Shown: in pieces, positions 17,443-47,031 of the stretch | How the letters are laid out: each line of letters begins with the position of its first letter | How positions within the stretch are numbered: the stretch's first letter is position 1 | Source: Roseibacillus sp. | GTDB lineage: Bacteria > Verrucomicrobiota > Verrucomicrobiia > Verrucomicrobiales > Akkermansiaceae | NCBI GenBank assembly: GCA_051251855.1 | Contig: JBPOGI010000001.1 | Coordinates: 1,472,001 to 1,536,000 of the forward strand | Reading direction: 5' to 3' | DNA length: 64,000 bases | Position numbers and translations under genes: made by a program | The notes under the pieces: generated by a model | What the model was told of the DNA's origin: nothing | Databases searched by the model: none | Seen by the model: the letters and a program-made list of their open reading frames with translations, nothing else

Positions 17443-17465
17443 TTCACGCACAAAAAATACGCAAT
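17443..17465. promoter_or_regulatory. Putative dyad operator, copy 1 (divergent CotH / GH2 promoter region)
   Basis: TTC-ACGCAC-AAAAA-ATACGC-AAT; matches the shared 23-bp dyad consensus. Confidence 0.55.
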
Positions 17466-17528
17466 CCAGCCACCTCAATCGACAATCCAAGCTGGTCTCA
17501 CCTCTCTGAGGAAGGCTTCATTGAGGAC

Positions 17529-19856
17529 ATGAAAGCCCACCTCCTTTTCACAGCTCTCCCACTCCTTCATTGTACGACGCTTTCCTTGCTAGCTGAAACA
17601 ATCGACTTCAGTGGTGATTGGAAATTCGAAAAAACGAAAGACGACGCCGATTGTTCCAATCCCGCTTTCGAAGACAGTCACTGGCAAGACGTGAGCCTTC
17701 CTCACACCGCCAATATTGAGCCCCTCGTGGTCAATGACCAATGGCAGGGCGTTTGTTGGTATCGCAAGTCTTTCGATGTTCCATCCGACAAAGCCGGAAA
17801 ACAAGTCTGGCTCGAATTCGAAGCCGCCATGAACGAATCGAGCTTTTGGCTCAATGGCGAAAAAGTTGCCGACCACTTGGGTGGCTACCTGCCCGTCGTC
17901 ATCGACATCAGCGACCAAGTCAAATTCGGCGAAAGCAACACCATCGCCGTTCGCCTCGACAACACCGACAACATCTACTCCGGCCCCAAGCCTCTCGAGC
18001 GTCTCGACTTCAACATGTATGGCGGCCTCTACCGGCACGCCCATCTCACTTACAAGGATCCCCTCCACATCACCCACCCCATTCTTGCCAACAAAGAAGC
18101 GAGCGGTGGCACCTTCCTCACTTTTCCGCAAGTCAGCGCCGAGCAGTCCCAAGTCAAAATCCAAACCCACCTCGCGAACAAGTCAAAGGACAATTCCTCC
18201 TTCCAAATTCGCCACCGCATTCTCTTCCAAGAGCAAGAAGCCGCCACGAGCAAAAAGGAAGACCTTGCTCTCGACTCCGGTCAAGATGCCGAATTTGAAG
18301 AAACCTTCACTCTCAATAATGCAGCCCTCTGGTCCCCGCAGTCTCCTAACCTCCATCACTTGGTCACCGAGGTCGTCGTCGATGGACAAGTTGTCGATAG
18401 CGAAACCACCCGCTTCGGCATTCGGCGCTTCGAGTTCCGCGAGGGCCACAAACTCTTCATCAACGGCGAGAAAACCTTCCTCCGCGGAGTCAATCGTCAT
18501 CAGGAATATCCCTTCGTTGGCTATGCCCTCTCGGACAACGCCCAGTATCGCGACGCCAAGAAAATCAAGGACGGCGGATTCGACTACGTTCGCCTTTCCC
18601 ACTACCCTCATTCGCCCGCCTTCATGGATGCCTGTGACGAGCTCGGCTTGATCACCATGAACGCCATCATGGGTTGGCAATACTTCCTCGAAGACGAACG
18701 CTTCCGCAACTACTGCTACCAGTCCACCCGCCATCTCATTCGTCGCGACCGCAATCGCGCTTCCGTTCTTTGCTGGGAGGCTTCCCTCAACGAGACCAAA
18801 GTTCCCGAGGACTTTCTGGAAGAACTCCATCGTCTCGTTCACGCCGAATTCCCCGGCGACTACGTCTACTCCGCCTCGTGGGACAACCATTGCCACGACA
18901 TTTTCCTGCAAGCACGCCAGCACCGTATTCTCCACAACTTCGAAGTAGACCTCTCCAAACCTTACTCCGTTTCCGAGTATGGCGACTGGGAATACTTTTC
19001 TAACAACGCAGGCTTTCATCAGGACAAAATGAGCAAATCCGAGCGCGCCGCCCTGAGCAGTCGCCAGCTCCGAAGCGCTGGCGAGAAGAAGCTCCACCTC
19101 CAAACCCACAACGTGCAGGAGTCCCACAACGACAACCTCACCACCTACGCCTTCTCCGATAGCTACTGGGTGATGTATGACTACAATCGCGGCTACTACG
19201 ACGACCTCGAAGCCTCCGGCCTGAGCGACATCTACCGTCTTCCTAAATTTGGCTACGACTTCTATCGCAGCCAGCGATCACCCGAGGAAGGGGTCATGGT
19301 CGATATTGCTAGTTTCTGGACCGAACAATCTCCCTTCGACGTCAAAGTCTACTCCAACTGCGACGAGGTCGAACTGGTAATCAACGACAAAACTGTGGCC
19401 CGCCAAAAGCCCGACACCGACGAAGATTGCACCAAACTTAATCACCCGCCCTTCACCTTTCTTTTCGAGGAATTCGAACCCGGCACCCTCACCGCGATTG
19501 CCTTCCGCGACGGAAAAGAAGTGGCCCGTGACAGCGTCACCACCCCGGGAAAAGCCACTCGTCTGGTCGCGTGGTTGGATGAAAGCGGCCGTCCTCCGCA
19601 GGCCGGAGTCAACGACGTGCTCTTCCTCCACCTTGCCGCCGTCGACGACCAAGCGGTCATCGTGCCCACTTTCACCAGCGAAATCGACCTCCAACTCGAA
19701 GGCGACGCCGAAGTCCTCAACGTGGGCCCCATCGTCGCCGAAGCAGGTGTCGCCACCGCCCTCCTGCGTATCGGCAGCGAACCGGGAGAAGTCCGTTTCA
19801 AGGCCAGCAGCAAAGAACTCACCATCATCGAATCCAATTTTCAAACCGGCAAGTAG
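17529..19856 (+). CDS. Glycoside hydrolase family 2 (probable beta-galactosidase)
   Basis: Signal peptide, 'WYRKSF', 'GGYLP', 'YGGLYR', 'LRGVNRHQEY', 'VRLSHYP', 'WEASLNE' (acid/base), 'VSEYG' (nucleophile), 'VYSNCDEVEL'. Confidence 0.92.
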   Translation: MKAHLLFTALPLLHCTTLSLLAETIDFSGDWKFEKTKDDADCSNPAFEDSHWQDVSLPHTANIEPLVVNDQWQGVCWYRKSFDVPSDKAGKQVWLEFEAAMNESSFWLNGEKVADHLGGYLPVVIDISDQVKFGESNTIAVRLDNTDNIYSGPKPLERLDFNMYGGLYRHAHLTYKDPLHITHPILANKEASGGTFLTFPQVSAEQSQVKIQTHLANKSKDNSSFQIRHRILFQEQEAATSKKEDLALDSGQDAEFEETFTLNNAALWSPQSPNLHHLVTEVVVDGQVVDSETTRFGIRRFEFREGHKLFINGEKTFLRGVNRHQEYPFVGYALSDNAQYRDAKKIKDGGFDYVRLSHYPHSPAFMDACDELGLITMNAIMGWQYFLEDERFRNYCYQSTRHLIRRDRNRASVLCWEASLNETKVPEDFLEELHRLVHAEFPGDYVYSASWDNHCHDIFLQARQHRILHNFEVDLSKPYSVSEYGDWEYFSNNAGFHQDKMSKSERAALSSRQLRSAGEKKLHLQTHNVQESHNDNLTTYAFSDSYWVMYDYNRGYYDDLEASGLSDIYRLPKFGYDFYRSQRSPEEGVMVDIASFWTEQSPFDVKVYSNCDEVELVINDKTVARQKPDTDEDCTKLNHPPFTFLFEEFEPGTLTAIAFRDGKEVARDSVTTPGKATRLVAWLDESGRPPQAGVNDVLFLHLAAVDDQAVIVPTFTSEIDLQLEGDAEVLNVGPIVAEAGVATALLRIGSEPGEVRFKASSKELTIIESNFQTGK

Positions 19857-19865
19857 TCCTCAGTT

Positions 19866-21353
19866 ATGATTTTTCCAAAACTCCTCGCCACTCTCGTTCT
19901 CGTTGGCCAACTCGCCGCCAAACCCAACATCGTCTTCATCCTCGTAGACGATCTCGGTCACGCCGACGTGGGCTTCAACGGCTCCACCTACTACGAGACC
20001 CCTCACATCGATGCCTTGGCCAAAGAAGGCCTCATCGTAGACAACGCCTACATGTATCCCACTTGTTCGCCCTCGCGAACTTGTCTCGCCACCGGGAAGC
20101 AGTCCTTCCGCACCGGCGTCTACACCGTTCCGGTTTTGGAAAAGGGAGACGCCCAAGAGAACATCTTCTCCCGCTGGACGGTCGGCGAAGAACACCTCAT
20201 GTATTCCCAGCCCCTCGCGGAAGCAGGCTACAAGTCCATCCACATCGGCAAGTGGCATCTCGTGGGGCCCTATCCCAAGGAAGAATTGGCGATGGAGCAT
20301 CCCTTCCAAGAAAAGCTGACCCAACCCGATCCTTGGGACTTTAGCTGGGTACCTTACCACAAAGAGCATTGCGTGAAGTACTACCCCGAAGGCCGCGGCT
20401 ACCTCAAGAACGTGGCTGGAACCTATCGCGGCGACCCCGCTCTCGAAGTCGATGGCTACCACAACCCCACCGGCGGCTACTTCGCCCCCTTCAGCAATCC
20501 CTTCCTCGAACAAAAACCCGACGACGAGTGGCTCACCGATCGCCTCACTGACGACGCCATTGCCTTCATGGATGAACACAAGACAGGCCCCTTCTTCATC
20601 AATCTACACTACTACACCGTCCATCGCCCCGTGCGCGGACGGGATAAGGAACTCGTCGAAAAATATCTCAACAAACCCGGAGACCCCATCACCGGGCAAG
20701 GATTAACGAAAGGAAAGCGCGGACAAATCGAAGCAGAATACGCCACCATGATCGAGTCCCTCGATGACAACGTGGGACGCTTGGTCGCCTTCCTCGACGA
20801 GAACAACCTTCGCGAAGAGACCCTCATTATTTTCACTTCCGACAACGGACAAAACATCGGACCCAATAAAAAGCTCCGCGGAAAGAAAGGGCACATCTAC
20901 GAAGCCGGCATTCGCGTTCCTACCTGCTTCAACTGGCCCGGAAAAATCGCACCCCGTCACACCGAGACCGCGATCACCTGTCTCGACTTCTTTCCGACCT
21001 TCATGGATTTGGCCAAAATCGACTACGACGGCACTCTTGACGGACACTCGCTGAGAGAACTCTTCAACAAGGATCCCAAGCCCCTGCAAGAACGACCTCT
21101 CTTCTGGCACGTCGCCAGTCGCAACGTCCACGGACCGTGCTCCGTCATTCGCAAGGACAACCACAAACTCATCCAATACCTCATGGACGGAAAACTAGAG
21201 CTCTACGACCTCGTCAACGACGAAGCCGAGAAGAACAACCTTGCAGAGAAGAACCCAGAACTCGCGCAGTCCCTTCTGAACGAGCTGGAAGCCTGGAGAA
21301 AAGAGCACCAAGCTCCGCTTCCCCCCGGCTCCAAGTTGAACGAACTCGAATAG
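19866..21353 (+). CDS. S1 sulfatase
   Basis: 'PNIVFILVDDLG', 'CSPSR', 'GKWHL', 'SDNG', 'YEAGIRVP'. Confidence 0.92.
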   Translation: MIFPKLLATLVLVGQLAAKPNIVFILVDDLGHADVGFNGSTYYETPHIDALAKEGLIVDNAYMYPTCSPSRTCLATGKQSFRTGVYTVPVLEKGDAQENIFSRWTVGEEHLMYSQPLAEAGYKSIHIGKWHLVGPYPKEELAMEHPFQEKLTQPDPWDFSWVPYHKEHCVKYYPEGRGYLKNVAGTYRGDPALEVDGYHNPTGGYFAPFSNPFLEQKPDDEWLTDRLTDDAIAFMDEHKTGPFFINLHYYTVHRPVRGRDKELVEKYLNKPGDPITGQGLTKGKRGQIEAEYATMIESLDDNVGRLVAFLDENNLREETLIIFTSDNGQNIGPNKKLRGKKGHIYEAGIRVPTCFNWPGKIAPRHTETAITCLDFFPTFMDLAKIDYDGTLDGHSLRELFNKDPKPLQERPLFWHVASRNVHGPCSVIRKDNHKLIQYLMDGKLELYDLVNDEAEKNNLAEKNPELAQSLLNELEAWRKEHQAPLPPGSKLNELE

Positions 21354-21468
21354 CTGTAACTCACGAACTTCCACGCCAATATCGACTCAGCGATTCCCTC
21401 TGCCTCCCCCTCGGAGGCTCGCAACATCTTCCTGATCAGCTTGCAGCAAGCGGACTCGGACCATCCCA

Positions 21469-21491
21469 ATCGCGTATATTCCATGCGTAAA
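21469..21491. promoter_or_regulatory. Putative dyad operator, copy 2 (upstream of DUF1800 operon)
   Basis: ATC-GCGTAT-ATTCC-ATGCGT-AAA. Confidence 0.6.
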
Positions 21492-21525
21492 TGGGTATTT
21501 CATCCTTCCACTCAATGGATTAGGG

Positions 21526-24500
21526 TTGAAACCCTTGAAAAACCCGTTTCCGGTTCCTCGCATTTGTTTTGGCCCCAGCCTGCTGACAATTTGTTGCTTC
21601 TCGCTCGCCGTTTCCCGCGCCGAGATCGTCAACTTTACGACTGTTGAGGGCTATGCCGACGGGAGCTTGAACGCCAACTCCAACTGGGACGCTTCCGACG
21701 CCTCCCAATCAACGGTCAATACCAGTGGCACGGGCACAGCCTCGGTCGCAGCCTATCGCGATGCCATTTTCTTACCTGCTCTCCCTATCGCTACAGGAGA
21801 CGTCTTCACCACTGCTATCGACTTCACCTTCACCGGTTCTACCGTTACCGATTACGGGGTTGCCAAGTTCAAGCCCTTCCTCGATGCCAGCTTCTATGCC
21901 TCGGATGCGAGTGGGGAACTGCTGAAGATCGGCTTTGCCCGCAGCGATCAAACCTATGCTCTCAACCTCCAGGCAAATTGGAGAAACGACATCGTTCCTC
22001 CTTTCACGACCGGAAACGCAGTGGTAGGCGGCATCTCCGCACCCAGCGTAGGAATCAATCGCGATGGTGATTTGGAAAGCGACCTCCTCCGACTCACCCT
22101 CGATCTCATTCGGGGCACCAGCGACACGGACTGGTCGTTGACTGCTACTCTCTCCAATCTCGCCAGTGGGAGCCCCATTCAAATCAGCCAACTAGTCGTC
22201 AGCGGCCTCACCTTTCCAACCACGGGAACCCTCGCCGCTGGTTTCGGAGGCGGCCAGAGCGATAACAACGCCAAGGTGAGCAACCGCCTCATTCATCGCT
22301 TTCAGTTTGAAAGAGAGTCCAACACTCCCCCTCCTCCTCCAGTTGATCCACCGCCTACCGGACCGGCGCCAGCGGACTTGAACCAAAACGGTATTCCAGA
22401 TCTTGCGGAACTCACCATTCCTCTCATTGCCCAGTATCCGCCTGCCGGGGACACCGACGGAGACGGGCAATCCAATGCCGATGAACTGGTGGCAGGGACC
22501 GACCCCTTTGATGCCGAATCCACTTTCGGCGAAGTCGCCTTAGCCTACCTGACAGGCACCCCCGACCAAGTGGACTTCACCTTCGCTACGGTGCCGGGAG
22601 TCCGCTACACCATCGAAATTTCCGAAACCCTGGCCGCGAATAGTTGGACCACTCTCACCCCCGAGGTGACTGCCTCCGAACAGGAAACCACCCTCTCCTA
22701 CGATCCGGCCACGCTGCCTATCACGGAAGCTCGTTGCTTTTTCAGGGCTGGGATTCTTCCATCACTCGACAGTGATTCCGATGGTCTCGAAGACGCCCTC
22801 GAACTGTATCTCGGTTTCGGAATCAATAGCGCCGCCAGTGTCCGCGCCGCCAGCGAAGGTGGAGACTATGCGCAACTCTATCAGCTGCTGCACGGGGCCA
22901 ATCCCAACGGTGGATTGATGAATGAAACCACCCCCGGAATTCCTTCGGAGGAGCAAGCCGCGCGCTTTCTCAACCAAGCCACCTTCGGAGCCACCCCTGA
23001 AAAAATCGACGCTCTTCGCCTTTTGGGAAACAATGCCTACGAGTTCTGGATTGACCAACAGTTGGCCCTCCCCGCGAATAGCTTCGCCAGCCCCTACCTC
23101 GACCTCACCAGTGCCCGCCGCCTAACAGACTACAATACCAACGACTGGGACCAGTTTGCACACAAAGTCGACTTTCAGAGCTATTGGGCCGACTACCTGG
23201 AAAATCTCCAAACCGTTTGGATGCGGCTGGCGCTCTTTGCCCCCGACGAACTTCGCCAACGGGTGGCTTGGGGACTGAGCCAAATCTTCGTAGCCGGCCC
23301 CGATTCCTTCTCCCATGCCAGAGGGCAGGCCGAGTGGTACGACACTTGTATCCGCAATGCCACCGGCAATTACCGTACCCTGCTTTTCGAGATCGCAGTC
23401 AATCCCTGGATGGGAATTTACCTCTCTCACGAAGGGAACGAGAAGGCGGACCCAAGCCTCAATCAGCTACCAGACGAGAACTTTGCCCGCGAAATCATGC
23501 AACTGTTCTCCATCGGTCTCTGGGAGCTGAACAACGACGGCACCCGCAGGCTCGACTTCAATAGCAAACCGATTCCGAGCTACACCAACGACGACATTAC
23601 CCAAGTGGCTCGGGTTTTCACGGGCTTGAAGCGTAATTTTTCAGAATTCGGAGGCAATTCGCAGGACATTTTTTCCACCGCGCCCATGCTGATGAAAGAC
23701 AATCTCCACGACAAGGGAGATACGGTTATGGTTGGAGTCTACGGGGTAGCGGAGAAGACCTTTTTACAGAGTCCCTTCTACACTCCCGCCTCGTTACCCG
23801 CTTTTGAGAATGACCCCGGACGCACGGGCATGGATGACGTCAATGACACCATCGATATTCTTTTCAACCATCCCAACACTCCCCCTTTCATCTCCAAACG
23901 ACTCATTCAACATCTGGTAACCTCCAATCCATCGCCTGATTACGTGGAACGGGTTGCGAATGTCTTTATCGACGACGGCACTGGGACGCGCGGAAATTTG
24001 GCTGCTGTTGTGAAAGGCATCTTCCTGGATGATGAGGCCCGTGGTGCTTCCGCCATGCTTGCCAGCAATAGTGGTCGCCTCAAAGCGCCCATGCTCCGGC
24101 TAACCAACCTGTGCCGTATATTTGAGGTCGGAATTGCTACTCCCTCCATAGACGACCTTTCTGGAATCCAAGCTTGGAACCCTTCCATGAGCGCGCTTCA
24201 GGAAGACTTCAAACAGGCTCCCCACCAATATCCCTCCGTCTTCAACTTTTATGAACCTGGCTACAGCCGACCCGGAGAAATCTCCGACAGTGAATTGGTG
24301 AGTCCGGAATTCCAGATTTTGGATTCCGCCTCCTCAATTACGCTTCCGAACCGAATCTGGCAATTTTTCTCCAACGGTCATCTGCACACCCCTCATCCCG
24401 ATGCCGCGGCCACCACTCCCAACACCGACTTTCAATTCTCGGTGCTCAGTACTTTCGCCGATGATACCGACGCCTTGTTAGACAAGCTCAACACCCTCCT

Positions 24501-24651
24501 TTGCCAAGGTCAAATGAAGGCTCTTTCCCGTAGTCAAATCGCGAGTGCCGTTGATGGAGCTTACCCCGCTAGTGCGGCAAACCGGGTGGATCGAATCAAG
24601 CTCGCAACCTACCTGGTCACTATCAGCCACGATGGCGCCGTCCTCAAATAA
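21526..24651 (+). CDS. DUF1800 family protein with N-terminal lectin/CBM-like domain
   Basis: DUF1800 motifs 'AARFLNQATFG', 'LRQRVAW.LSQI', 'MGIYLSH', 'PDENFAREIMQLFSIGL', 'LVTSNPS'. N-terminal domain shared with 27260..29365. Pro-rich linker, DTDGDG. TTG start uncertain. Confidence 0.88.
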   Translation: MKPLKNPFPVPRICFGPSLLTICCFSLAVSRAEIVNFTTVEGYADGSLNANSNWDASDASQSTVNTSGTGTASVAAYRDAIFLPALPIATGDVFTTAIDFTFTGSTVTDYGVAKFKPFLDASFYASDASGELLKIGFARSDQTYALNLQANWRNDIVPPFTTGNAVVGGISAPSVGINRDGDLESDLLRLTLDLIRGTSDTDWSLTATLSNLASGSPIQISQLVVSGLTFPTTGTLAAGFGGGQSDNNAKVSNRLIHRFQFERESNTPPPPPVDPPPTGPAPADLNQNGIPDLAELTIPLIAQYPPAGDTDGDGQSNADELVAGTDPFDAESTFGEVALAYLTGTPDQVDFTFATVPGVRYTIEISETLAANSWTTLTPEVTASEQETTLSYDPATLPITEARCFFRAGILPSLDSDSDGLEDALELYLGFGINSAASVRAASEGGDYAQLYQLLHGANPNGGLMNETTPGIPSEEQAARFLNQATFGATPEKIDALRLLGNNAYEFWIDQQLALPANSFASPYLDLTSARRLTDYNTNDWDQFAHKVDFQSYWADYLENLQTVWMRLALFAPDELRQRVAWGLSQIFVAGPDSFSHARGQAEWYDTCIRNATGNYRTLLFEIAVNPWMGIYLSHEGNEKADPSLNQLPDENFAREIMQLFSIGLWELNNDGTRRLDFNSKPIPSYTNDDITQVARVFTGLKRNFSEFGGNSQDIFSTAPMLMKDNLHDKGDTVMVGVYGVAEKTFLQSPFYTPASLPAFENDPGRTGMDDVNDTIDILFNHPNTPPFISKRLIQHLVTSNPSPDYVERVANVFIDDGTGTRGNLAAVVKGIFLDDEARGASAMLASNSGRLKAPMLRLTNLCRIFEVGIATPSIDDLSGIQAWNPSMSALQEDFKQAPHQYPSVFNFYEPGYSRPGEISDSELVSPEFQILDSASSITLPNRIWQFFSNGHLHTPHPDAAATTPNTDFQFSVLSTFADDTDALLDKLNTLLCQGQMKALSRSQIASAVDGAYPASAANRVDRIKLATYLVTISHDGAVLK

Positions 24652-24666
24652 ACTCTACTTCCCGCA

Positions 24667-26070
24667 ATGAAACGCCGCCAATTTCTCGGACACGCCAACT
24701 GTGCCGCCTTGGGTTCCCTCGGAACGATTAACACCTTGCTCAACCTTCGGCTCATCAACAATGCCATTGCAGCTCCAGCTGACCCGAACGACTACAAAGC
24801 CCTGGTGGTGATCATCCTCGGGGGAGGCAACGATGCCTTTAATATGCTGGTCCCTACCGAGACTTCCGAATACGCCAACTATGCGGCCATCCGCAGCAAT
24901 CTCGCCTTACCTTCGCCGGACCCGATGAACCCGGACGCGCTGCTCCCTCTCAACGTCAGCAACACCCCTGGACGCACCTTTGGCCTCCATAGCGCGATGC
25001 CGAACCTGCAAAGTCGATTCAACGAAGGCAACGCTGCTTTCCTGGCCAACGTGGGAGCCTTGGTGGAACCGACCACGGTTTCGCAATTTAATAACAAGTC
25101 GGTAGACCTACCTCGCTCACTCTTCTCCCATAATGACCAGCAAGACATCTGGGCCAGCACGAGCCCCTTGGAGACAACCAAGACTGGGTGGGCGGGGCGC
25201 CTGGCGGACAACATCATGTCCTGCAATCCGTCCAACAATGTCTCGATGAACATTTCCCTCGATGGAAACAACTTCGCGCTCGTGGGCGACACCTCTTTCT
25301 CCTACGCAATCACACCCGATGGCGCACCGGTGCTCAATGGCACCTCAGGCAACGCGATCGAACTGGCTCGTGGCGACACCGCCAAGTCGCTCGCCGAACA
25401 GCAGCAACGTGAACTCCTACGCAGAGCCTTCAACAACGAGAACAAGCGCGCTTTTGATATTTCCGAACTGTTCAACGATGCCGTCTCCGGGGCTTCGCTG
25501 GGGACCAACTTTGGTAATGCCGACATTGAAGAAAAGCTCGAAGCGGTGGCCAAGACTATCGCCTCCCGCTCAGCGCTTGGCCACAATCGCCAGATTTTTG
25601 CCGTTCCGACGGGAGGCTTCGACAACCACCCCGAACTCCTGAACAAGCAACGCACTCTTCTTGGTCGACTCGACAACGGACTCGATTCCTTTTGGAGCGC
25701 TCTCACCAATCTTGGTCTCACTAACGACGTCACCGTGATTACGGTCTCCGAGTTTGGGCGCACTTTGCGTTCCAATGGACAAGGGACCGATCATGCTTGG
25801 GGTAGCCATGCTCTCATGATGGGTGGGGCGGTAGATGGAGGGAAAATCTTTGGATCCTATCCAGACGACTCCGACTTGACGCTCGGTTCAGGCTTGGATG
25901 TGGGAAGCGGCAACGGCCGTATTTTGCCCACAACGTCTGTGGAAGAGTATTACGCCGAAGCCGCGCTCTGGATGGGCTTGCCATCGGGTCAGTTGGACGA
26001 AGTGCTTCCCAACCTTGACCGATTCTACAGCTATTCGGCGGCCAACCCGCCATTGGGATACTTACTCTGA
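24667..26070 (+). CDS. DUF1501 family protein (DUF1800-associated type, Tat leader)
   Basis: 'KRRQFL', 'DYKALV...L.GGND..N', 'LFSHNDQQ', 'GGFDNH', 'SEFGRTL..NG.GTDHAWG'. Confidence 0.9.
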   Translation: MKRRQFLGHANCAALGSLGTINTLLNLRLINNAIAAPADPNDYKALVVIILGGGNDAFNMLVPTETSEYANYAAIRSNLALPSPDPMNPDALLPLNVSNTPGRTFGLHSAMPNLQSRFNEGNAAFLANVGALVEPTTVSQFNNKSVDLPRSLFSHNDQQDIWASTSPLETTKTGWAGRLADNIMSCNPSNNVSMNISLDGNNFALVGDTSFSYAITPDGAPVLNGTSGNAIELARGDTAKSLAEQQQRELLRRAFNNENKRAFDISELFNDAVSGASLGTNFGNADIEEKLEAVAKTIASRSALGHNRQIFAVPTGGFDNHPELLNKQRTLLGRLDNGLDSFWSALTNLGLTNDVTVITVSEFGRTLRSNGQGTDHAWGSHALMMGGAVDGGKIFGSYPDDSDLTLGSGLDVGSGNGRILPTTSVEEYYAEAALWMGLPSGQLDEVLPNLDRFYSYSAANPPLGYLL

Positions 26071-26077
26071 GTTTTTC

Positions 26078-27153: not shown

Positions 27154-27179
27154 GAGGAACAAACGCTCATTTTGGTCAA

Positions 27180-27202
27180 ATCGCGTATATCAGAAACGCA
27201 AT
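27180..27202. promoter_or_regulatory. Putative dyad operator, copy 3
   Basis: ATC-GCGTAT-ATCAG-AAACGC-AAT, 58 bp upstream of ATG 27260. Confidence 0.6.
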
Positions 27203-27259
27203 TGCCCCTATCTCTCGCCCCCTTTTTCGCAAAATCTTACGGGGTAAATCAAAAAAACC

Positions 27260-29365: not shown

Positions 29366-29448
29366 CAACCCTGAAGCTATCGAGGGAATTCTATCCTCAA
29401 CCGCGTATCTTAGGCCCTCGCTTTTTCAAAATCTCTTAAACAATTATC

Positions 29449-30288: not shown

Positions 30289-30316
30289 CCCCTCATCTTT
30301 TCGCAGGCAATCCCAC

Positions 30317-36712: not shown

Positions 36713-36735
36713 TTTACGTATGTCGTATGCGGAAT
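36713..36735. promoter_or_regulatory. Putative dyad operator, copy 4 (divergent PEP-CTERM / GH110-GH150 operon)
   Basis: TTT-ACGTAT-GTCGT-ATGCGG-AAT, plus an extra half-site-like AATCGCATAC at 36759. Confidence 0.55.
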
Positions 36736-36800
36736 CGCGACTATTCGTGAGTTGGCGCAATCGCATACTTTCTCACTAAGAAAAACCATCAGTTTTCCCA

Positions 36801-38636: not shown

Positions 38637-38662
38637 CGGTCGCTCGCGCATCGATTGACCAA

Positions 38663-41518
38663 ATGACCCTCCCCTCACTACTCCGCCCTCAACCAGCGAT
38701 TGCTCTTCTTTTTCAAGGGGTATCATTCGGCGAGGAGTCTCTGAGCAAAGAGAGAGCGTTACTCAGTTTCGACACGGGTCACACCATTAGTCGAATTCGC
38801 TCCGCCCAACAGGGCGAATCTTCCCGCATCGTTGCCAGCAGCTACGAAGGCACGATCCTCTCCTTCTCATTCTCCGGAAAAGTTCATTGGAAGCAGAAGC
38901 TCTCTGGATTCATGAATCGCGACCTCTGGTGCGCGGACCTAACCGGAGATGGCAACGACGAGATTCTCGCCGCAAACGCGGATGGCCACCTCTACTGCCT
39001 CGACGCCGAAGGCAACCCGCTCTGGAAGTTCCGTCCCTCGCAGGCCCCCATGAATAGCGTGGCAACGCTTACACACGAAGGAACCACCGTTGTGGTCTGC
39101 GGAGGTTACGACAAGAACATCTACTGGCTCTCTGCCAAGGGCGAGCCCATCAAGACGGTCCCTTCTTCGTCCTACTCAATTGAAAAAGTCTGGGGCAAAA
39201 AGAGCGAGAAGAAGCTTCCTAACAGCAAGGAGCACATTGCGAACTTCTTACGACCCGCCGAAGGGGAGAATGGACAGGACATACTCGTCCTCCATGCAGC
39301 CATCAACAGCAACTCTGGGAACGGAAGCCTCTATCTCTTTCAACCGCTTGCCGAACATCCCTTCAAGGTCATCAAGAAACCCATTCTCAGGAAGCCCTCT
39401 GGCGACCTCTCTCTCTGTGATACCGATGGCGACGGCATCGAGGAAGTTCTGTTAGGATCCAGCTCAACGTCCAATGACGGGGGCTTCCTGCATATCGACC
39501 TTCAGTCATCAGAGATGGCTCTCAGAAATTTCCAAGACCTCCGAAAGGAAAAAGCCCTCAGAGAAAAAATGAAAGGACTCGCCTATCGAGTCGCGCAAAC
39601 TTTGCCGCTGGGTCCCCCTCCCCACAAACAATTTTTAACCGCCTTTGGTTCCCGATTTGTTCTTTCCCCTGCTGACTTAAATGCGGAGAACACCGAAGTC
39701 ATCGTCAGCCCCTATTCCTTCAACGACATTTGGAAAGACCCTCGTTCTAACAAAATCCTGCTGGCAAGCATTCAAAGTGGCGGCAGTGGGATTCACATCT
39801 TGGACCCTTCGCAACCGGATTGGAAAAACGCACTCGAGAACTTTCAACCCACGGGAAAAATCGCGCGAGTTCTTTCCAACACGCAGCAAGTTCGAGAACA
39901 GCTTCAGCTCGAAGAACGTCCTTCAGTAAAGACCTCAGCTCGCAAAGTGTATTTCCTAACCGAGGCGCTCTCCGGCGAACTCGAACAGCACGCTCTTGAG
40001 CTCGAAAAAGAACACGGGAATCCCGTCTTCTTGCAAGGCCAGCACATGAACAAAGTCGAGGACTGGGACCGAGTCACCGTCACTAGCGAGCTCTATCGCG
40101 AAAAGAGAGACCGCAGAAAAAGCTATGTCCTGTCCCCCGAAGAAGCGCTCGACCAGCTCTCAAATCTCTACCAGACCACCCGCTCAGGAGTCTCTTATTG
40201 GGGAGGCCATGGAAACGACCCCTACATGTTCAGCAGCGAAACGCTCATCAAAGCGCTCGCCAATCACCCCGAGAAGAAGACCGTTCTCATCTACCCAGAA
40301 CTGGAGAAGTGGAATGACGACTTCGCGATGGTGCTAGACGATCACATCTACCCTTTAGCGAGCACCTTCCAAGGCACCGAGAACCGGCTCTACATTCGAA
40401 CCAAGCATGCCTTTTGGCACTCGATTGTCTATGAACCGCTCTGGAGTCGGCTTCTCTCCGGCGAGTTTGCCGACGTCTTTGTCCCGTCCATGGAAGAGAC
40501 CACGGATAAGACGCCCGAGCAAACCGTTCCCAGTCGCGTCGGCATCTGGGCCAGTGGTGCAGTCAATCAATGGGGCTCGCGAGTCGTTCGTGATAATCCC
40601 AGCTTCGACCGCCTACGCCAGCATTCCGATCAGATGCTACCCAATCACTTTCTGCGCAACCAAATCTATCACCTCTCTCTTGGAGCCACCTACCTCAACA
40701 ACTTTGCAATCGATCAGGATTACTTCAGCGTTCTCTACGATCTCATTGCTCAAGGTGTGCTCTACGTTCCCGCACGAAATGAAATCGTGAGCTTTAATCC
40801 TGTCCACCTCGGAATGACCCGCCCTGATCCCTTCTATCTTGATGAAGGAAACAACGCCAAGTGGGTCACCTTTTTTGACGAAGAAGAAGAGGCCGAGAAC
40901 CCCCGCGTCTTTAGCCGCCTCAACGGAACCTGGCCCGGCGCGCCTGTTCACGAATGGGACTACTCCTCATTCGCTGCCGGGGTAAAGGATCGTCGCTTGA
41001 ACTATCTCCCCCCCTTCGAGAATGGTGTCGTCCTCATTGCCCCTGCCCAAAGCGGAAAGTTCGCCAATCCCGATGCCCCTCGAGGTCGCATGGTCGATCA
41101 CCTCCACCCGCTCTACCGCGAAACCATGCACGAGTTCATCACCAATGGCCGCGAATACCTCTCGCCCGATGGCACCGAAAGCTACCCCGCGGACCAACAC
41201 TATCAATCCGTCGCTCAAGCCATTGCCAAAGGCGCCGAGCTGCTTCCTCTCACCGTCGCAGGCGAAGTGGCTTGGACCGTGGCCCAGACCGCACCCGACC
41301 GACTCCGACTCACTGTCATCGATGGCGGCTACCTCAATCCCAGCAGAAAACAGGCAACGATCACCTTCCGAGCCGCCCGCGCCAAGGCCATGACCGACCT
41401 TCTTTCTGGTGAAACCACTGATTTAAAAGGAAAGAATTCGGCGGCAGTGGAAGTCCCTAGTGGGCTCTTCCGTTTCTACGATGTGGAGCTCACCCAACCA
41501 TTCCATCCCAAAAAATGA
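38663..41518 (+). CDS. cglA: Lambda-carrageenase-like endo-hydrolase (GH150, CglA-like)
   Basis: N-terminal 'FDTGHTI..IRS...IVASSYEG...W...LSGFMN.DLW.AD..GDG.DEILAANADG' propeller repeats, 'WGGHGNDP', 'MEET', 'WG.R..RDN..FDR'. About 950 aa, as recalled for CglA. Confidence 0.82.
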   Translation: MTLPSLLRPQPAIALLFQGVSFGEESLSKERALLSFDTGHTISRIRSAQQGESSRIVASSYEGTILSFSFSGKVHWKQKLSGFMNRDLWCADLTGDGNDEILAANADGHLYCLDAEGNPLWKFRPSQAPMNSVATLTHEGTTVVVCGGYDKNIYWLSAKGEPIKTVPSSSYSIEKVWGKKSEKKLPNSKEHIANFLRPAEGENGQDILVLHAAINSNSGNGSLYLFQPLAEHPFKVIKKPILRKPSGDLSLCDTDGDGIEEVLLGSSSTSNDGGFLHIDLQSSEMALRNFQDLRKEKALREKMKGLAYRVAQTLPLGPPPHKQFLTAFGSRFVLSPADLNAENTEVIVSPYSFNDIWKDPRSNKILLASIQSGGSGIHILDPSQPDWKNALENFQPTGKIARVLSNTQQVREQLQLEERPSVKTSARKVYFLTEALSGELEQHALELEKEHGNPVFLQGQHMNKVEDWDRVTVTSELYREKRDRRKSYVLSPEEALDQLSNLYQTTRSGVSYWGGHGNDPYMFSSETLIKALANHPEKKTVLIYPELEKWNDDFAMVLDDHIYPLASTFQGTENRLYIRTKHAFWHSIVYEPLWSRLLSGEFADVFVPSMEETTDKTPEQTVPSRVGIWASGAVNQWGSRVVRDNPSFDRLRQHSDQMLPNHFLRNQIYHLSLGATYLNNFAIDQDYFSVLYDLIAQGVLYVPARNEIVSFNPVHLGMTRPDPFYLDEGNNAKWVTFFDEEEEAENPRVFSRLNGTWPGAPVHEWDYSSFAAGVKDRRLNYLPPFENGVVLIAPAQSGKFANPDAPRGRMVDHLHPLYRETMHEFITNGREYLSPDGTESYPADQHYQSVAQAIAKGAELLPLTVAGEVAWTVAQTAPDRLRLTVIDGGYLNPSRKQATITFRAARAKAMTDLLSGETTDLKGKNSAAVEVPSGLFRFYDVELTQPFHPKK

Positions 41519-42870
41519 AAACTCTCCTCCTCGCCAGCCTCCTCTTTCCTCTTTTGGCCTGCGCCGAAACTTCGCAGCCTAACATCGTCCTTTTTTTCGT
41601 CGACGACATGGGTTGGGACGACATGGGCTATCGCGACAAACTTTACGAAACACCCCATCTCGACCAACTTGCCCAGGAGAGCGTCGATTTTCAACAAGCC
41701 TACATTCCCTGCCCCACTTGCAGCCCCAGCCGAGGTGCCTTGGTCACAGGACAGCACCCCGCCCGCCTCAAGCTCGTCCGCCACATTCCCAACGATCCCG
41801 AAAACGGATTCGACGAATTTGGGCGCTCCGAAAAGAAATTCAATCTCTGGCCCACCGACCCCGCCCAATTCCCCTGCGTCAATTGGCTCAGTCTCGACCA
41901 CCCCACCTACGCCGAGGAGCTGGGAAAACTTGGATACTACAACTTGTTCGTCGGAAAGTGGCACTTGGGCCACGAACCCTACCATCCTGTCAAACAAGGA
42001 TTCGACCGCCAGATTGGCACCTCCAACTTCGGCCACCCCAAGTCCTACTACCCGCCCTATTTCAAGAACGGCCCGGTCTTCGCCGATGAGAAAGAACGCT
42101 ACCTCACCGACAAGCTCACCGACGAGACCGTCTCCTTCATCGCCGACTACGAAAAGGAGAAGCCCTTTATGATTTCGCTCTGGTATTACACTGTTCACGG
42201 TCCCCACGTCGGTCGCAAGGACCTCATTCAGCGCTTCAAGGACAAGGGTATGGAGAAGAAGGAAGCCACCTACGCCGCCATGTGCACCGCGATGGACGAA
42301 TCTGTCGGTCGCGTTCGCAAGGCCCTTTCCGAGAAAGGAATCGCCGACGACACCGTCATCATTTTTCTTTCCGACCAGGGAGCGATGTTCGAGAACAAGC
42401 CTTTCCGCGGAGGGAAACGAAGCGAGACCCTCTACGAAGGCGGGGCGCGCGTGCCCTTCATGATTTCCTGGCCCGGAGTCACCAAAGCTGGACCGAACAG
42501 GCAGGTCGTCGAGTCCACCGACCTCTTTCCCACCCTACTGGAAATCGCTGGCGGCGACCCCTCCGGAGTCAAGAACCTCAACGGTGTCTCCCTCCTTCCC
42601 GCCCTCAAAAACGGAGCTATCGTCGAGCGCACCAATCCCATCATCGGCTACCGCGCCTACGAAGACCTCTACGCCTCGGTCCGCGATGGTGACTGGAAAC
42701 TGCTCGCCTACCGCAGCGGCACCATCAAGCTCTACAACCTCGCCCAAGACATCAGCGAAACCACCGACCTCTCCGAAAAGGAAACCGAAATCACAACCCG
42801 TCTCGTAGAAACTCTCAAGGCGTGGGAGAAAGAAATGCAGGTCGAACAATACTCAGGCGTCCAATCATGA
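41515..42870 (+). CDS. S1 sulfatase
   Basis: ATGA overlap, 'PNIVLFFVDDMG', 'CSPSR', 'GKWHLG', 'SDQG'. Confidence 0.92.
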   Translation: MKTLLLASLLFPLLACAETSQPNIVLFFVDDMGWDDMGYRDKLYETPHLDQLAQESVDFQQAYIPCPTCSPSRGALVTGQHPARLKLVRHIPNDPENGFDEFGRSEKKFNLWPTDPAQFPCVNWLSLDHPTYAEELGKLGYYNLFVGKWHLGHEPYHPVKQGFDRQIGTSNFGHPKSYYPPYFKNGPVFADEKERYLTDKLTDETVSFIADYEKEKPFMISLWYYTVHGPHVGRKDLIQRFKDKGMEKKEATYAAMCTAMDESVGRVRKALSEKGIADDTVIIFLSDQGAMFENKPFRGGKRSETLYEGGARVPFMISWPGVTKAGPNRQVVESTDLFPTLLEIAGGDPSGVKNLNGVSLLPALKNGAIVERTNPIIGYRAYEDLYASVRDGDWKLLAYRSGTIKLYNLAQDISETTDLSEKETEITTRLVETLKAWEKEMQVEQYSGVQS

Positions 42871-44288
42871 AAACCCTCCTCTCTCTTATCCTCCTTCTCC
42901 CTCTGTCCGCAGCGGAGAAGCCCAACATCGTCCTTTTCGTCTCCGATGACCACGGTCTCGATGCCCTCGGCTGCTACGGCAACCCCGTCATCGAGACACC
43001 TAACATGGACAAACTTGCCGCTGAGGGTGTCCGCTTCACCAATGCCTACTGCACCAGCGCCAGTTGCGCCGCCAGCCGCTCGGTCATTCTCACCGGACTC
43101 TACGGTCACGCCACCGGCTCCTACGGTCACGTCCACGACTACCATCACTTCAGCACCTATTCCCACGTCAAGTCTCTCCCCGTCCGTCTCTCGGCTGCTG
43201 GCTATCACACCGCCCGTATTGGTAAATACCACGTCGCCCCCGAGAGCGTCTATCAGTTCGACACCACCCACGAAGCCAACCCCCGCAGCACCGTCGAAAT
43301 GGCGGAAGCCTGCCGCCCTACCATCGCCGGCGACCAGCCCTTCTTTCTCTACTTTTGCCCTGACGATCCTCATCGCGGCGCACCCTTCACCCCCGACGAT
43401 TGGACCGACCCCAACACCTTTGGCAACCGCCCCGAGGGCTATCCCGGAGTCGAAGCCAAAAAATACGATCCTACCAAAGTGATCGTTCCTACCTTTCTTC
43501 CCGACTCCAAGGAATGCCGCGAGGAGTTGGCCGAATACTACCAATCCGTCTCCCGCATCGATCAGGGTCTCGGGAAACTTTTTTCCATTCTCGAAGAAAC
43601 CGGAAAGGCCGACAACACCGTCGTTATCTACCTCTCCGATAACGGCATCGCCTTCCCCGGAGCCAAAACCACGGTCTACGAACCCGGCATCAAGCTTCCC
43701 CTCATCATCACCGACCCCCGCAAGCCTGACCTCAAGGGAAAAGTGAACGAAGCCTTTGTCAGCTGGGTGGACCTCACTCCCACCATCCTAGAACTCTCAC
43801 AAATCGACGAATCCAAAGAACAATTTCAAGGCCGCTCCCTCCTTCCTATCCTTGCCACTCCCAATCCGAAAGGATGGAACGAAGTCTACGCCGCCCACAA
43901 CTTCCACGAACTCACCATGTATTACCCCATGCGCGTGATTCGCATCGATGACTTCAAGCTCATCTGGAACATCGCCCACGGTCTCGACTACCCCTTCGCG
44001 ACCGACCTCTGGGCAGCTTCCACCTGGCAAGCCGTCTACCACAGCGAAGAGCAGCAATACGGCAAGCGCTCGGTGAAGGACTATCTCAAGCGACCACAAT
44101 TCGAACTCTACAACCTCGCCACCGATCCTGACGAAGTGAACAACCTCGCAGAGGATCCCGCTCACTCAAAACAACTCGCATCCCTCAAAGAGAAACTCAA
44201 AGCCTTTCAATTGAAGACCAAGGACCCTTGGCAAATCTCTTGGGGAGACTACGAAACCGAAGTTCAGGGAACCGGAGTCGGCCTCTAA
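42867..44288 (+). CDS. S1 sulfatase (sulfamidase/SGSH-like group)
   Basis: ATGA overlap at 42867, 'PNIVLFVSDDHG', 'CAASR', 'GKYHV', 'SDNG', 'HE...YYPMR'. Confidence 0.92.
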   Translation: MKTLLSLILLLPLSAAEKPNIVLFVSDDHGLDALGCYGNPVIETPNMDKLAAEGVRFTNAYCTSASCAASRSVILTGLYGHATGSYGHVHDYHHFSTYSHVKSLPVRLSAAGYHTARIGKYHVAPESVYQFDTTHEANPRSTVEMAEACRPTIAGDQPFFLYFCPDDPHRGAPFTPDDWTDPNTFGNRPEGYPGVEAKKYDPTKVIVPTFLPDSKECREELAEYYQSVSRIDQGLGKLFSILEETGKADNTVVIYLSDNGIAFPGAKTTVYEPGIKLPLIITDPRKPDLKGKVNEAFVSWVDLTPTILELSQIDESKEQFQGRSLLPILATPNPKGWNEVYAAHNFHELTMYYPMRVIRIDDFKLIWNIAHGLDYPFATDLWAASTWQAVYHSEEQQYGKRSVKDYLKRPQFELYNLATDPDEVNNLAEDPAHSKQLASLKEKLKAFQLKTKDPWQISWGDYETEVQGTGVGL

Positions 44289-44298
44289 CAAAAATAAC

Positions 44299-45771
44299 AT
44301 GATGAAAACTGTATTCGCCCTCCTCCTCTGCTTGAGCCCGCTTCTCACGGCCCAGAACAAGCCTAACATTGTGTGGATCATCCCCGACGATATGTCCGCC
44401 CATTTTTCCAGCTACGGAGAAACGGCCATCGAGACTCCCCACGTCGATCGACTTGCCAAACGCGGAGTCAAATTCACCAACGCCGTGGTCACCGCTCCCG
44501 TCTGCTCAACCTGCCGTTCGGCGTTCATCACCGGAAGGTATCAAACCTCCATTGGAGCTCATCACCACCGGAGCGGACGTGGAGTAGAGAAGATCACCTT
44601 ACCGGATGCTATCAAGCTCGTCCCCCAACTCTTTCAAGAGGCCGGCTACTTCACCACCATTTCCGCTTGGCCAAAGCAGGGAAAAAAACTCGGCAAGACG
44701 GACTATAACTTCGAATGGGACGAGTCAGTCTACGATGGCAATGACTGGTCAGAACGCGAAGAAGGACAACCCTTCTTTGCCCAGATTCAAACGCCCGGTG
44801 GAAAGCTTCGAGGTAGCGACAAGGACTCATGGGAACGCATCCAAGCAAAGGCTGAACAAACCTTCGGCGACCGAACCCCGGATAGCGCGGTCAAGCTGCC
44901 CCCCTACTACCCGAACCACCCCGACCTCATTCGGGATTGGGCCGCCTACCTTGATTCTGTTCGTCTCACGGATCACATGGTGGGCGAAGTGGTGGCTCGA
45001 CTCGAGAAGGAAGGACTCTTGGAGAACACTCTCATCCTCTTCATGACCGACCACGGCATCAGTCACGCTCGCGGGAAGCAGTTTCTTTATGAAGAAGGCA
45101 TCTACGTCCCCCTCGTCATCGCAGGCCCAGGCATCACAGCTAACTCGGTTCGCGAGGACCCAGTTGAGCACATCGATATCGCCGCTCTATCCCTCGGTGC
45201 CGCCAACATTTCTGTTCCCGATTGGATGCAAGCTCGCGACATCCTTGCCAAAGACTACCAACCCCGTAGCGAGGTCTTCTCGGCTCGTGATCGCTGCGAC
45301 GAGACCGTTGATCACCTTCGCTCCGTCCGTACCAAAGACTTCAAGTATATCCGCAACTTTCTTCCCGAACGTCCCTATCTCCAACCATCCGCTTACAAGG
45401 ATGCGAAACAGATCCTCATCGCTCTCAGAGAATGGAACACTGCCGGCAAATTGAATGAGGTTCAAAAAGGCCTCTTCCAAGAAACTCGACCACCGGAAGA
45501 ACTCTACGATCTCAAGAACGATCCCTTCGAAGTGGAAAACCTCGCAGACAAACCCGAGTATCAGGAAAAACTCGGAGCTCTTCGTGCCAGCCTCGATGAA
45601 TGGATGAAGGCCACCAATGACCTCGGTCAAACTCGAGAGCCAAAGAAAATGTTCGAAAGCGACATGAAGATCTATCTCGATACGGTGAAGCGAAGAAAGG
45701 ATTCCCAACACGTGCAAATTCTGGAAGCCAACATCGAACTCATGAGAAAGTGGCGCTCTGAAGGCAAATAG
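44299..45771 (+). CDS. S1 sulfatase (SGSH-like group, atypical CSTCR motif)
   Basis: 'PNIVWIIPDDM', 'CSTCRSAFITG', 'KTDYNF', 'TDHG', 'RDRCDE', 'EELYDL..DP'. Confidence 0.9.
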   Translation: MMKTVFALLLCLSPLLTAQNKPNIVWIIPDDMSAHFSSYGETAIETPHVDRLAKRGVKFTNAVVTAPVCSTCRSAFITGRYQTSIGAHHHRSGRGVEKITLPDAIKLVPQLFQEAGYFTTISAWPKQGKKLGKTDYNFEWDESVYDGNDWSEREEGQPFFAQIQTPGGKLRGSDKDSWERIQAKAEQTFGDRTPDSAVKLPPYYPNHPDLIRDWAAYLDSVRLTDHMVGEVVARLEKEGLLENTLILFMTDHGISHARGKQFLYEEGIYVPLVIAGPGITANSVREDPVEHIDIAALSLGAANISVPDWMQARDILAKDYQPRSEVFSARDRCDETVDHLRSVRTKDFKYIRNFLPERPYLQPSAYKDAKQILIALREWNTAGKLNEVQKGLFQETRPPEELYDLKNDPFEVENLADKPEYQEKLGALRASLDEWMKATNDLGQTREPKKMFESDMKIYLDTVKRRKDSQHVQILEANIELMRKWRSEGK

Positions 45772-45846
45772 AGAAAAGGACCTCAATGGGTCCGAGGTCG
45801 ATTTCTTATCGGCGCGAATCGGAAACACGAAAACTTCTCATCCATC

Positions 45847-46983
45847 ATAAAAAGTAAGCCGGACATTCCCCAGATCGCGATTCAGCTCAATACCATGCAG
45901 TCGTGGAGCCGCTCGATTCTCAAGGGCATCCTTTCCTATGCTCAGGAGGTGGGTCCTTGGCACGTCTGGATTGATGCTTCGGGGAAACACGAATTCCCCG
46001 TAGGTTGGCGAGGTGATGGAGTGATCGCTCGAGTCGATAGCCCCGAAATTGCAAGCTTCCTCAATGACTTGAACCTCCCCGTCGTCGATGTCTGCGACGA
46101 CCCCTCCTCCACATTCCAAGCTCCCAAAATCCGCACCGACGACCGAGTCGGCACCGAACTCGCCGCAGGACATCTCATCGAGCGTGGCCTGCGAAATATC
46201 GGTTTCGTTGGCCCCCAGAACATTGCCAACGCTCAGGTGTATCATCGCCATTTCCTCACTGCGCTGGAGGAACGAGACCTTGAATGCCACTCCCTTCAAT
46301 TCGACAACAACGACCCAGACATTCTAAAGAGCATCACCGAGTGGCTACTCCAAGTTCCCAAGCCCATCGGTATTCTCGCCTGGGGACATGGCTTTGCTCG
46401 CAATGTCATGGACTGTTGCCTGGAGGAGGGAATCTCGGTTCCCCACGATGTGGCCGTCATCAGCGGAAGCTACGACGAACTCTTTTCCCATGCCTGCTAT
46501 CCCTCGCTATCGGGAATCCTTCTCCCCACCGAGACCATTGGCTATCAGGCGGCTCAAGTTCTCCACAAAATGATGCTAGGCGAACCTGTGGAATCCGAAG
46601 TCACCCTCATCCCTCCGCGTGGAGTGATGGCTCAACTCTCGACCGACACCCTCGCCATCGATGATCCCAAGCTCATTCAAGTCATCAACTTCATCCGCGC
46701 CAATGCCTTCGAGCCCATTACCATGGACGACATCTTACGCGAGGTCCCCATGGCTCGTCGTTCGCTTGAACGACGTTTCCGCCAGACCTTTGGGCATTCT
46801 CCTTCCGAAGAAATCCGAAAAATCCGCGTCGACAGAGCTCGCAAACTTCTCGCCGAAACCGATCTACAAATGCAAGAAATCGCCGAGAACTGCGGATATG
46901 CTACCTACAATTACCTGACTCACGTCTTCAAAAAAACCACAGGCAAGACACCACGGGAATATCGCAACCAGTTTCGTTCTTAG
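45847..46983 (+). CDS. XylR-type transcriptional regulator (periplasmic-binding-protein-like domain + AraC HTH)
   Basis: 'SRSILKGI', 'DGVIAR', 'AAGHL..RG', 'VPHDVAVI', 'RRSLERRF', 'IAENCGY'. First ATG is at 45895, but the expected first beta-strand lies upstream, so ATA 45847 is proposed as start. Confidence 0.88.
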   Translation: MKSKPDIPQIAIQLNTMQSWSRSILKGILSYAQEVGPWHVWIDASGKHEFPVGWRGDGVIARVDSPEIASFLNDLNLPVVDVCDDPSSTFQAPKIRTDDRVGTELAAGHLIERGLRNIGFVGPQNIANAQVYHRHFLTALEERDLECHSLQFDNNDPDILKSITEWLLQVPKPIGILAWGHGFARNVMDCCLEEGISVPHDVAVISGSYDELFSHACYPSLSGILLPTETIGYQAAQVLHKMMLGEPVESEVTLIPPRGVMAQLSTDTLAIDDPKLIQVINFIRANAFEPITMDDILREVPMARRSLERRFRQTFGHSPSEEIRKIRVDRARKLLAETDLQMQEIAENCGYATYNYLTHVFKKTTGKTPREYRNQFRS

Positions 46984-47008
46984 TTGCGAGTCCAGACTTT
47001 TTGACCAA

Positions 47009-47031
47009 ATCGCGCACTTTAAAAGCGTGAG
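47009..47031. promoter_or_regulatory. Putative dyad operator, copy 5 (upstream of giant pilin-like gene)
   Basis: ATC-GCGCAC-TTTAA-AAGCGT-GAG. Confidence 0.55.

Follow-up and report, generated by a model that had tools for sequence, protein, structure and literature searches.

Marine Verrucomicrobiota play a major part in the breakdown of sulfated polysaccharides from algae, and the 64,000-nt stretch of a Roseibacillus sp. genome analysed here (the window; contig JBPOGI010000001.1, positions 1,472,001 to 1,536,000) carries a cluster of the sulfated-galactan type, with GH2, GH110-like and GH150 enzymes, many sulfatases, an LTD-CotH protein, DUF1800/DUF1501 proteins and several PEP-CTERM proteins. 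The PEP-CTERM, DUF1501 and PSCyt content and the source names of homologues of its XylR-type regulator likewise indicate a genome of Verrucomicrobiota type. Copies of a near-palindromic 23-mer lie in front of enzyme and surface-protein genes alike, which raises the question of what this motif is and which protein reads it. A sequence-only reading had taken it for the palindromic operator of one dimeric regulator controlling both groups of genes. Following the results below, it seems instead that the 23-mer forms the centre of a directional tandem repeat, which would be bound by the XylR-type activator encoded at 45.8 kb and would switch on the lambda-carrageenan enzymes together with surface operons; judged from sequence, this reading is given a probability of roughly 0.75.

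The 23-mers (consensus WTY-RCGYAY-N5-AWRCGB-RAD) were confirmed letter for letter at 17443, 21469, 27180, 36713 and 47009. Each is entirely intergenic by our own gene calls, and the exact consensus occurs at these 5 loci and nowhere else in the 4,958,744 bases of the genome under study (G000; G006, G069, G158, G196, G349, G519, G632 and G710 are other genomes). Genes were called in all genomes with simple open reading frame (ORF) callers, starts and intergenic limits being approximate; the calls used for this result amount to 86% coding sequence. With up to two mismatches allowed, the window holds 10 strand-matches compared to 1.69 expected, a number reached by 0 of 100 shuffles. Because the consensus was derived from the same five sites, non-circular tests were used. 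Leave-one-out position weight matrices placed the omitted site within the top 4, 2, 4, 8 and 13 of 4,958,458 genome positions, and an unseeded palindrome search of the intergenic DNA of the window returned exactly the five sites, at 18.8 bits. In control windows (26 of 71 run) this search gave a mean of 15.4 bits and the window beat 24 of the 26; taken by itself this control is not decisive, because two control windows scored higher (20.8 and 19.1 bits, from near-identical dispersed repeats) and another nearly did (18.5 bits). With a symmetric matrix built from 43 sites of relatives (seeded with the window matrix, the near-duplicate locus L066 being excluded), four window sites are among the top five of G000, while the 47009 site is the weakest of the five, with 5.8 bits against 16-21 for the others. 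The half or degenerate sites previously noted near 29400, 31967 and 58330 did not hold up, their best strands ranking 6,460, 28,039 and 1.4 million among 9.9 million strand-positions.

The architecture of the element became apparent from relatives, which were scanned as 20-kb stretches and with IUPAC patterns, and of which 39 sites (near-duplicate loci L063 and L066 excluded) were oriented to their genes. The oriented logo over 39 bp (-7..31) reads TGRCGnA-ATYRCGYAT-ATTTT-WTRCGCAAT-YDCGTATAT, i.e. two units of ~18 bp, (TG/WT)RCGnAATYRCGYATAT, with a period of 21 bp, in an element of 37-39 bp as a whole. The self-correlation of the 39-bp matrix is best at a direct shift of 21 (0.74), compared to 0.62 and 0.59 for the inverted alignments. 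A -10-like TAnnnT begins 28 or 29 nt past the 23-mer in 24 of the 39 sites (11 of 23 when G710 is excluded), whereas for other pairs of offsets the same sites average 2.0 and never exceed 6. Independently of the -10, polarity was assessed on the 24 sites with one gene-facing orientation only, where TG at -7/-6 is present in 15 of 24 orientations toward the gene versus 1 of 24 away from it, and the downstream T-n-T (T29 and T31) in 14 versus 2. In the same sites the CG is found in the gene-proximal unit of 23 and in the distal unit of 10, the promoter-proximal unit being the better conserved one. The units span roughly -71 to -54 and -50 to -33, the proximal one overlapping the -35 position. 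From sequence, then, the 23-mer is best described as the junction of two direct repeats in a polar element and not as a palindromic operator; the apparent palindrome arises because each repeat unit is nearly symmetric by itself. A model consisting of the palindrome only was discarded on account of the polarity.

A site of ~37 bp that is built of two direct repeats and adjoins the -35 of a sigma70 promoter (placed here by sequence, from the -10 spacing) is the arrangement of XylR-type activators. Of the repeats upstream of E. coli xylA the best one, which we take to be the IA site, has the form 16+5+16 with a period of 21; its -10-like hexamer stands at offset 30, in register with the element described here. 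Since the 39-bp matrix gives this E. coli repeat only 1.0 bit, the likeness lies in layout and not in sequence. E. coli XylR itself is reported to bind ~37-bp two-repeat sites next to the -35 and to activate (PMC3561964).

The protein encoded at 45.8 kb has the matching domain order, namely an N-terminal periplasmic-binding-protein (PBP)/LacI-like sensor (PF22177, PF13377) followed by a C-terminal AraC double helix-turn-helix (HTH) domain (PF12833), as in E. coli XylR (PMC3561964; PDB 4FE4/4FE7). It is 30% identical to that protein over 379 aa, and XylR (4FE4) is its top PDB match both by profile and by fold (monomer model, pLDDT 90.8). There is one XylR-type gene in G000 (a search with the single protein in the G000 contigs gave one locus) and one in G006, and close matches to the regulator exist in 9 family genomes and 8 phylum genomes out of 401 each, counts that include G000. 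Across the close clade both recognition helices are almost constant. It does not appear to be the xylose regulator proper: the window contains no xylAB genes, and the effector is probably not xylose, because three of the six xylose contacts (Y18, D65, W135, R139, D219 and Q237) are lost: in pairwise alignment W135, D219 and Q237 are replaced by Q, S and L. Y18 is W in this alignment, and D65 and R139 are present here and not conserved over 50 homologues. Judging from the targets, a carrageenan-derived sugar (a sulfated galacto-oligosaccharide or galactose sulfate) is probably sensed. The start of the gene deserves mention. Its first ATG is at 45895. In both G000 and G006 (L001 near 2184-2240) the sequence ahead of the first ATG encodes the conserved first strand of the protein, KPDIPQ; in the 45844-45895 region the two genomes differ by synonymous third-position changes, and no in-frame ATG, GTG or TTG occurs there. 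The true start is likely the conserved ATC codon at 45844, and the 362-364-aa database entries are probably truncated.

Whether this regulator is the one that reads the repeat was approached through co-occurrence, for which homologues with more than 80 of the last 90 residues identical were collapsed. The pattern derived from the window only (at most one mismatch) is found in 4 places in G710, 2 in G196, 4 in G519, 1 in G349 and 0 in G158; of these, 2 in G710, 1 in G196 and 1 in G519 are no more than 25 kb away from a close homologue of the regulator (chance 0.0006, 0.024 and 0.28). With the window matrix, the GH150/GH110 cluster of G710 shows 11 intergenic sites of at least 10 bits in 36 kb (140 kb scanned). 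An unseeded expectation-maximisation search of 169 intergenic regions near homologues recovered the motif, extended on both sides, with a log-likelihood of 210 versus 87 in one shuffled set (a control run with fewer starts). Sites of at least 11 bits lie within 6 kb of 10 of the 31 homologues with a DNA-binding-domain identity of at least 50%, compared to 2 of the 45 below that value (Fisher p 0.0025, kin not being independent). In G158, where the GH150 gene and the regulators are on different contigs, the enzyme gene has a 28.8-bit site followed by TATGAT, and the GH150 cluster of G069, whose best regulator homologue is only 32% identical, has no site in 60 kb. In relatives, oriented sites were also seen with orthologues of GH110 and of three sulfatases, those encoded at 19866, 30494 and 41515. 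Near some homologues of 43-45% identity the motif precedes other enzymes, e.g. GH92 in G632, and the code would therefore be clade-wide instead of confined to carrageenan. In sum, motif and homologue co-occurrence points to the local XylR-type regulator, which the sequence-only reading had named as a candidate, as the most likely binder, and the reservation made at that time, that AraC-type domains bind direct repeats, fits the direct repeat of period 21.

According to the proposed mechanism, the AraC double-HTH domains of the 45.8-kb protein would occupy the repeats once the PBP-fold sensor carries its effector, and the bound activator would bring RNA polymerase to promoters whose -35 boxes are poor. 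The gaps between the genes from GH110 to the third sulfatase are 26, -4, -4 and 13 nt, and these genes likely form a single operon extending into the regulator, which would then stand last in an operon under its own activation.

Within the window (Table 1), the preferred strands of the sites are unchanged when G710 is omitted from the training set. The site at 27180 has as its sole -10-like hexamer an imperfect CAAAAT at 27230-27235 (offset 27), and that at 21469 is followed by TAGGGT at 21521-21526 (offset 29). The latter would place the start of the DUF1800 transcript within a few bases of the predicted TTG start (21535), in which case either the mRNA would be leaderless or the start codon would be farther downstream. 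At 36713 a CATACT follows at 36764-36769 (offset 28), and on the opposite strand a TAGTTT at offset 29 faces the PEP-CTERM gene at 35807; the orthologous GH110 promoter in G006 retains a degenerate site and a TATTTT at offset 28. Inclusion of the GH110/GH150 operon, the DUF1800 operon and the 27260 gene in the regulon is likely on this evidence. The site at 17443 lies between divergent genes, and its direction depends on the matrix: 17.2 bits on the minus (CotH) strand (rank 3) versus 5.6 on the plus (GH2) strand with the matrix from relatives, and 9.4 versus 11.3 with a genus-only matrix. A general promoter scan of 17200-17600 found nothing. Orthologues of the sulfatase in the GH2 operon carry sites in G158 and G710. 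The GH2-sulfatase pair is probably a member, with somewhat less assurance than the former three, while the putative membership of the CotH gene is doubtful. The 47009 site is followed by TATGGT at 47061-47066 (offset 29), and 43 of 3,675 G000 genes have an upstream score at least equal to that of its gene; the pilin-like gene may be a member, the balance tipping slightly in favour. A second oriented site was sought in the two divergent regions of the window and not found.

Table 1. Features of the window. Ranks refer to the 39-bp matrix trained on other genomes, among 9.9 million strand-positions of G000.
Feature	Position	Strand	Remarks
39-bp direct-repeat site	27173..27211	+	core 27180-27202; rank 1; before the 27260 gene
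39-bp site	21462..21500	+	core 21469-21491; rank 2; before the DUF1800 operon
39-bp site	36706..36744	+	core 36713-36735; rank 7, rank 3 with -10 term; before GH110-GH150
Site between divergent CotH and GH2 genes	17434..17474	.	core 17443-17465; direction ambiguous
Weak site	47002..47040	+	core 47009-47031; rank 158, rank 35 with -10; before the pilin-like gene
XylR-type regulator gene	45844..46983	+	candidate binder
GH110-like alpha-galactosidase, GH150 lambda-carrageenase, three sulfatases	36801..45771	+	assigned by Pfam
DUF1800, DUF1501, 167-aa protein, PEP-CTERM protein	21535..27153	+	likely operon
701-aa secreted protein, then PEP-CTERM protein	27260..30288	+	701-aa protein without Pfam family
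GH2 glycosidase and sulfatase	17529..21353	+	
LTD-CotH protein	13354..17328	-	regulon membership uncertain
PEP-CTERM protein, divergent from GH110	35807..36562	-	arrangement same in G006
Large protein (1,230 aa, prepilin-like N-terminus without Glu5) and 228-aa partner	47121..51517	+	

Several results weigh against the activator reading. For the matrices from relatives the window matrix served as seed, and G710 supplied 13 of the 24 oriented training sites, though the results stay the same when it is left out. On the best strand, only two of the five window sites have a perfect TAnnnT at offset 28 or 29 (a third has CATACT), and at 17443 a -10 at this distance is absent from both strands. No site of at least 11 bits lies within 6 kb of 21 of the 31 close homologues, and the negative control consists of one genome, G069. 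Conservation in orthologous promoters is mixed: besides the degenerate GH110 site, G006 has kept the -10 and not the site in front of the pilin-like gene, its CotH orthologue (67%) is located elsewhere without a site, and a DUF1800 homologue on C82 of G006 has no site either, the closer copy on C140 being cut by the contig end. For E. coli XylR, one subunit per 37-bp site is reported, which does not simply explain two repeats (PMC3561964). Finally, a second AraC-family gene, discussed below, shows the same pattern of presence as the regulator in G006, G158, G710 and G069.

The tie between carrageenan enzymes and surface modules is, on the sequences compared, partly supported. The part of the original proposal that stands is that of one regulator, the DUF1800-DUF1501-PEP-CTERM operon and the 27260 gene, as opposed to the palindromic operator; the pilin-like link is weak, depending as it does on the weakest site and not being conserved in G006, and the link to CotH is ambiguous, the site lying between this gene and the divergent GH2 gene, and is not conserved either. 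An unlikely alternative, and the one that survives best, is that the sites are real while the surface modules are bystanders, inserted behind existing regulated promoters and without a role in carrageenan use. The missing CotH and DUF1800 links in G006 favour this alternative, as do the genome-wide expansion of the surface families and the 27260 gene, for which no full-length match (and one partial match) was found in 5 genomes tested. In G000, paralogues with a site within 400 bp are the cluster copy only, out of 11 CotH-like, 9 DUF1800 and 9 pilin-like genes, some of which may be operon-internal. Against bystanders speak the strong sites in front of DUF1800 and 27260 (ranks 2 and 1) and an excess of PEP-CTERM genes, found behind 5 of the 24 oriented sites (4 different genes, of which three are related) compared to 12 among the 363 ORFs in those loci. 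The strongest site seen (30 bits, a perfect match) lies in G006, 44 nt upstream of a lone 195-aa PEP-CTERM gene (C63; L028:12789-13376), which faces a SelB-like gene in convergent orientation amid housekeeping genes, far from the cluster; a chance hit among housekeeping genes was considered and rejected in view of the small PEP-CTERM gene downstream. A prepilin-type gene follows one oriented site in G710, and in G196 a further such gene comes after a GH110-like gene.

As to the surface proteins themselves, the 27260 protein has a 163-aa stretch in common with the DUF1800 protein and has legume lectin as its Atlas lead at 0.80, a weak one below the 0.9 of named families. The 47121 protein reaches 16.6 bits against Verru_Chthon cassette protein A (TIGR02600; cut-off 332.3), over the N-terminal helix only, and by this score does not qualify for that family; Atlas gives T2SS K/PulK at 0.78-0.79, likewise a lead below 0.9. 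It is one of two large pilin-like paralogues, out of nine, inside the window (47121-51517 and 59563-63951), each followed by a gene of ~230-260 aa, and the family is unnamed in Pfam and Atlas. To our knowledge, no substrate has been assigned to PEP-CTERM proteins, DUF1800/DUF1501 proteins or large pilin-like paralogues.

It is improbable, and more so than the bystander alternative, that the directional site is read by a different member of the AraC family, the most plausible being the cupin-type AraC encoded 2.6 kb past the window (L200:2652-3572) beside 3,6-anhydrogalactose genes. Classical AraC dimers bind repeats of 21-bp period, G000 has 14 AraC-domain genes, and the cupin AraC is present in G006 (75%), G710 (47%) and G158 (44%) and was not found in G069. 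On the other hand, no copy was found in G632, a genome of 98% completeness with 3 oriented sites within the 20 kb surrounding its XylR-like gene; the G710 copy and the site-rich cluster holding the XylR-like gene are on different contigs, and the intergenic regions flanking the cupin AraC in G000 reach at most 5.0 bits. The genes at L200:2652-13012, just past the window (the cupin AraC, an enolase-family enzyme, an aldehyde dehydrogenase, GH16 and GH127), likely form a kappa/iota-carrageenan (3,6-anhydrogalactose) module with a separate regulator, adjoining the lambda module.

The symmetric operator of a dimeric repressor (LacI/GntR/TetR style), which is what the 23-mer was initially thought to be, is very improbable. 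The 23-mer is near-palindromic, its inverted self-correlation amounting to 0.62, and on their opposite strand the window sites reach scores of up to 10.5 bits. Two-fold symmetry irrespective of gene direction is nevertheless not what is observed, since flanks and half-site strength are polar relative to the gene, the -10 is at offset 28 or 29 in only 2 of 24 away orientations, and the site lies at a fixed distance before the -10, which is the position of an activator. Least probable of all is that the motif is itself an ECF (extracytoplasmic function) sigma promoter, e.g. of the sigma factor at 2116: an ECF-FecR pair lies 15 kb away and GGTCAA-N17-CGCAA in the 17443 and 27180 sites resembles what we assume to be ECF -35/-10 spacing, but the motif does not supply its own -35 and -10, being followed by a separate sigma70 -10 at a fixed offset, it tracks the XylR-like DNA-binding domain, and neither gene 2116 (-10.5 bits upstream) nor its 86% paralogue elsewhere has a site. 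The extended -10 reading is likewise disfavoured.

With the XylR-type activator as the preferred binder, comparison with known systems shows both likeness and difference. As with the separate IA and IF sites of XylR, each of four divergent promoter pairs in G710 has an oriented site of its own for either direction; unlike in E. coli, the repeat is CG-rich with nearly self-symmetric units, the targets are sulfated-galactan enzymes and surface proteins, and there are about a dozen sites per cluster in G710 instead of two. In G710 (C2:201-238 kb; L144, L145) the sites of divergent pairs are 44-115 bp apart, with a TonB-dependent receptor and a sodium:solute symporter among the targets, and these pairs provide a natural test set for looping of the XylR type. 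CgrA of Zobellia galactanivorans is likewise an AraC-family positive regulator of a carrageenan cluster, but it governs the kappa/iota (3,6-anhydrogalactose) pathway in a member of the Bacteroidota, and no binding motif was found in the accessible part of that source (PMC5698469). The lambda-CarPUL of Pseudoalteromonas distincta U2A similarly clusters lambda-carrageenan glycosidases and sulfatases, with galactose as its end product, whereas its abstract does not describe regulation or mention PEP-CTERM, DUF1800 or pilin-like partners (PMC12549532). The MUL2 type IV-like pilus locus of Akkermansiaceae is a precedent for pilin-like proteins in glycan capture in the same lineage, although it is a conserved four-gene locus and the pilin-like genes here are lineage-variable paralogues within a substrate cluster (PMC13174399).

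In the titles and abstract openings searched (supplements, subscription papers and regulon databases lay outside the search), neither this motif nor a XylR-like regulon in Verrucomicrobiota was found described, and no transcription-factor motif or regulon was found for marine Verrucomicrobiota. The class of mechanism is textbook; the motif, the regulon of this clade and the connection with surface proteins appear to be undescribed. Tentatively, and with more doubt than confidence, a Verrucomicrobiota-wide XylR-like clade could use one conserved promoter code by which sulfated-galactan enzymes are co-induced with substrate-dedicated PEP-CTERM, prepilin-type, DUF1800/DUF1501 and CotH-like surface proteins that form a glycan-capture apparatus replacing SusC/SusD, the motif listing its parts from sequence alone, including genes distant from the cluster. 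A directional site with a fixed promoter position offers a cheap definition of the regulon that includes unlinked genes (GH150 in G158, the PEP-CTERM gene in G006), and it singles out particular surface proteins as candidates for carrageenan capture. The two dozen natural sites also bear on how a XylR dimer occupies a two-repeat site, and regulator and site together are a candidate biosensor for sulfated sugars.

Two further observations concern repeats in G000. The control search found near-identical short intergenic repeats with internal symmetry in C9:64-128 kb, C7:512-576 kb and C10:1-64 kb, possibly REP-like elements. Furthermore, the ECF sigma factor, PSCyt/PSD1, GH42-like and PEP-CTERM proteins at 2116-10202 and 55457-59261 of the window have 70-86% identical paralogues at C6:515-531 kb, which suggests a duplicated block.

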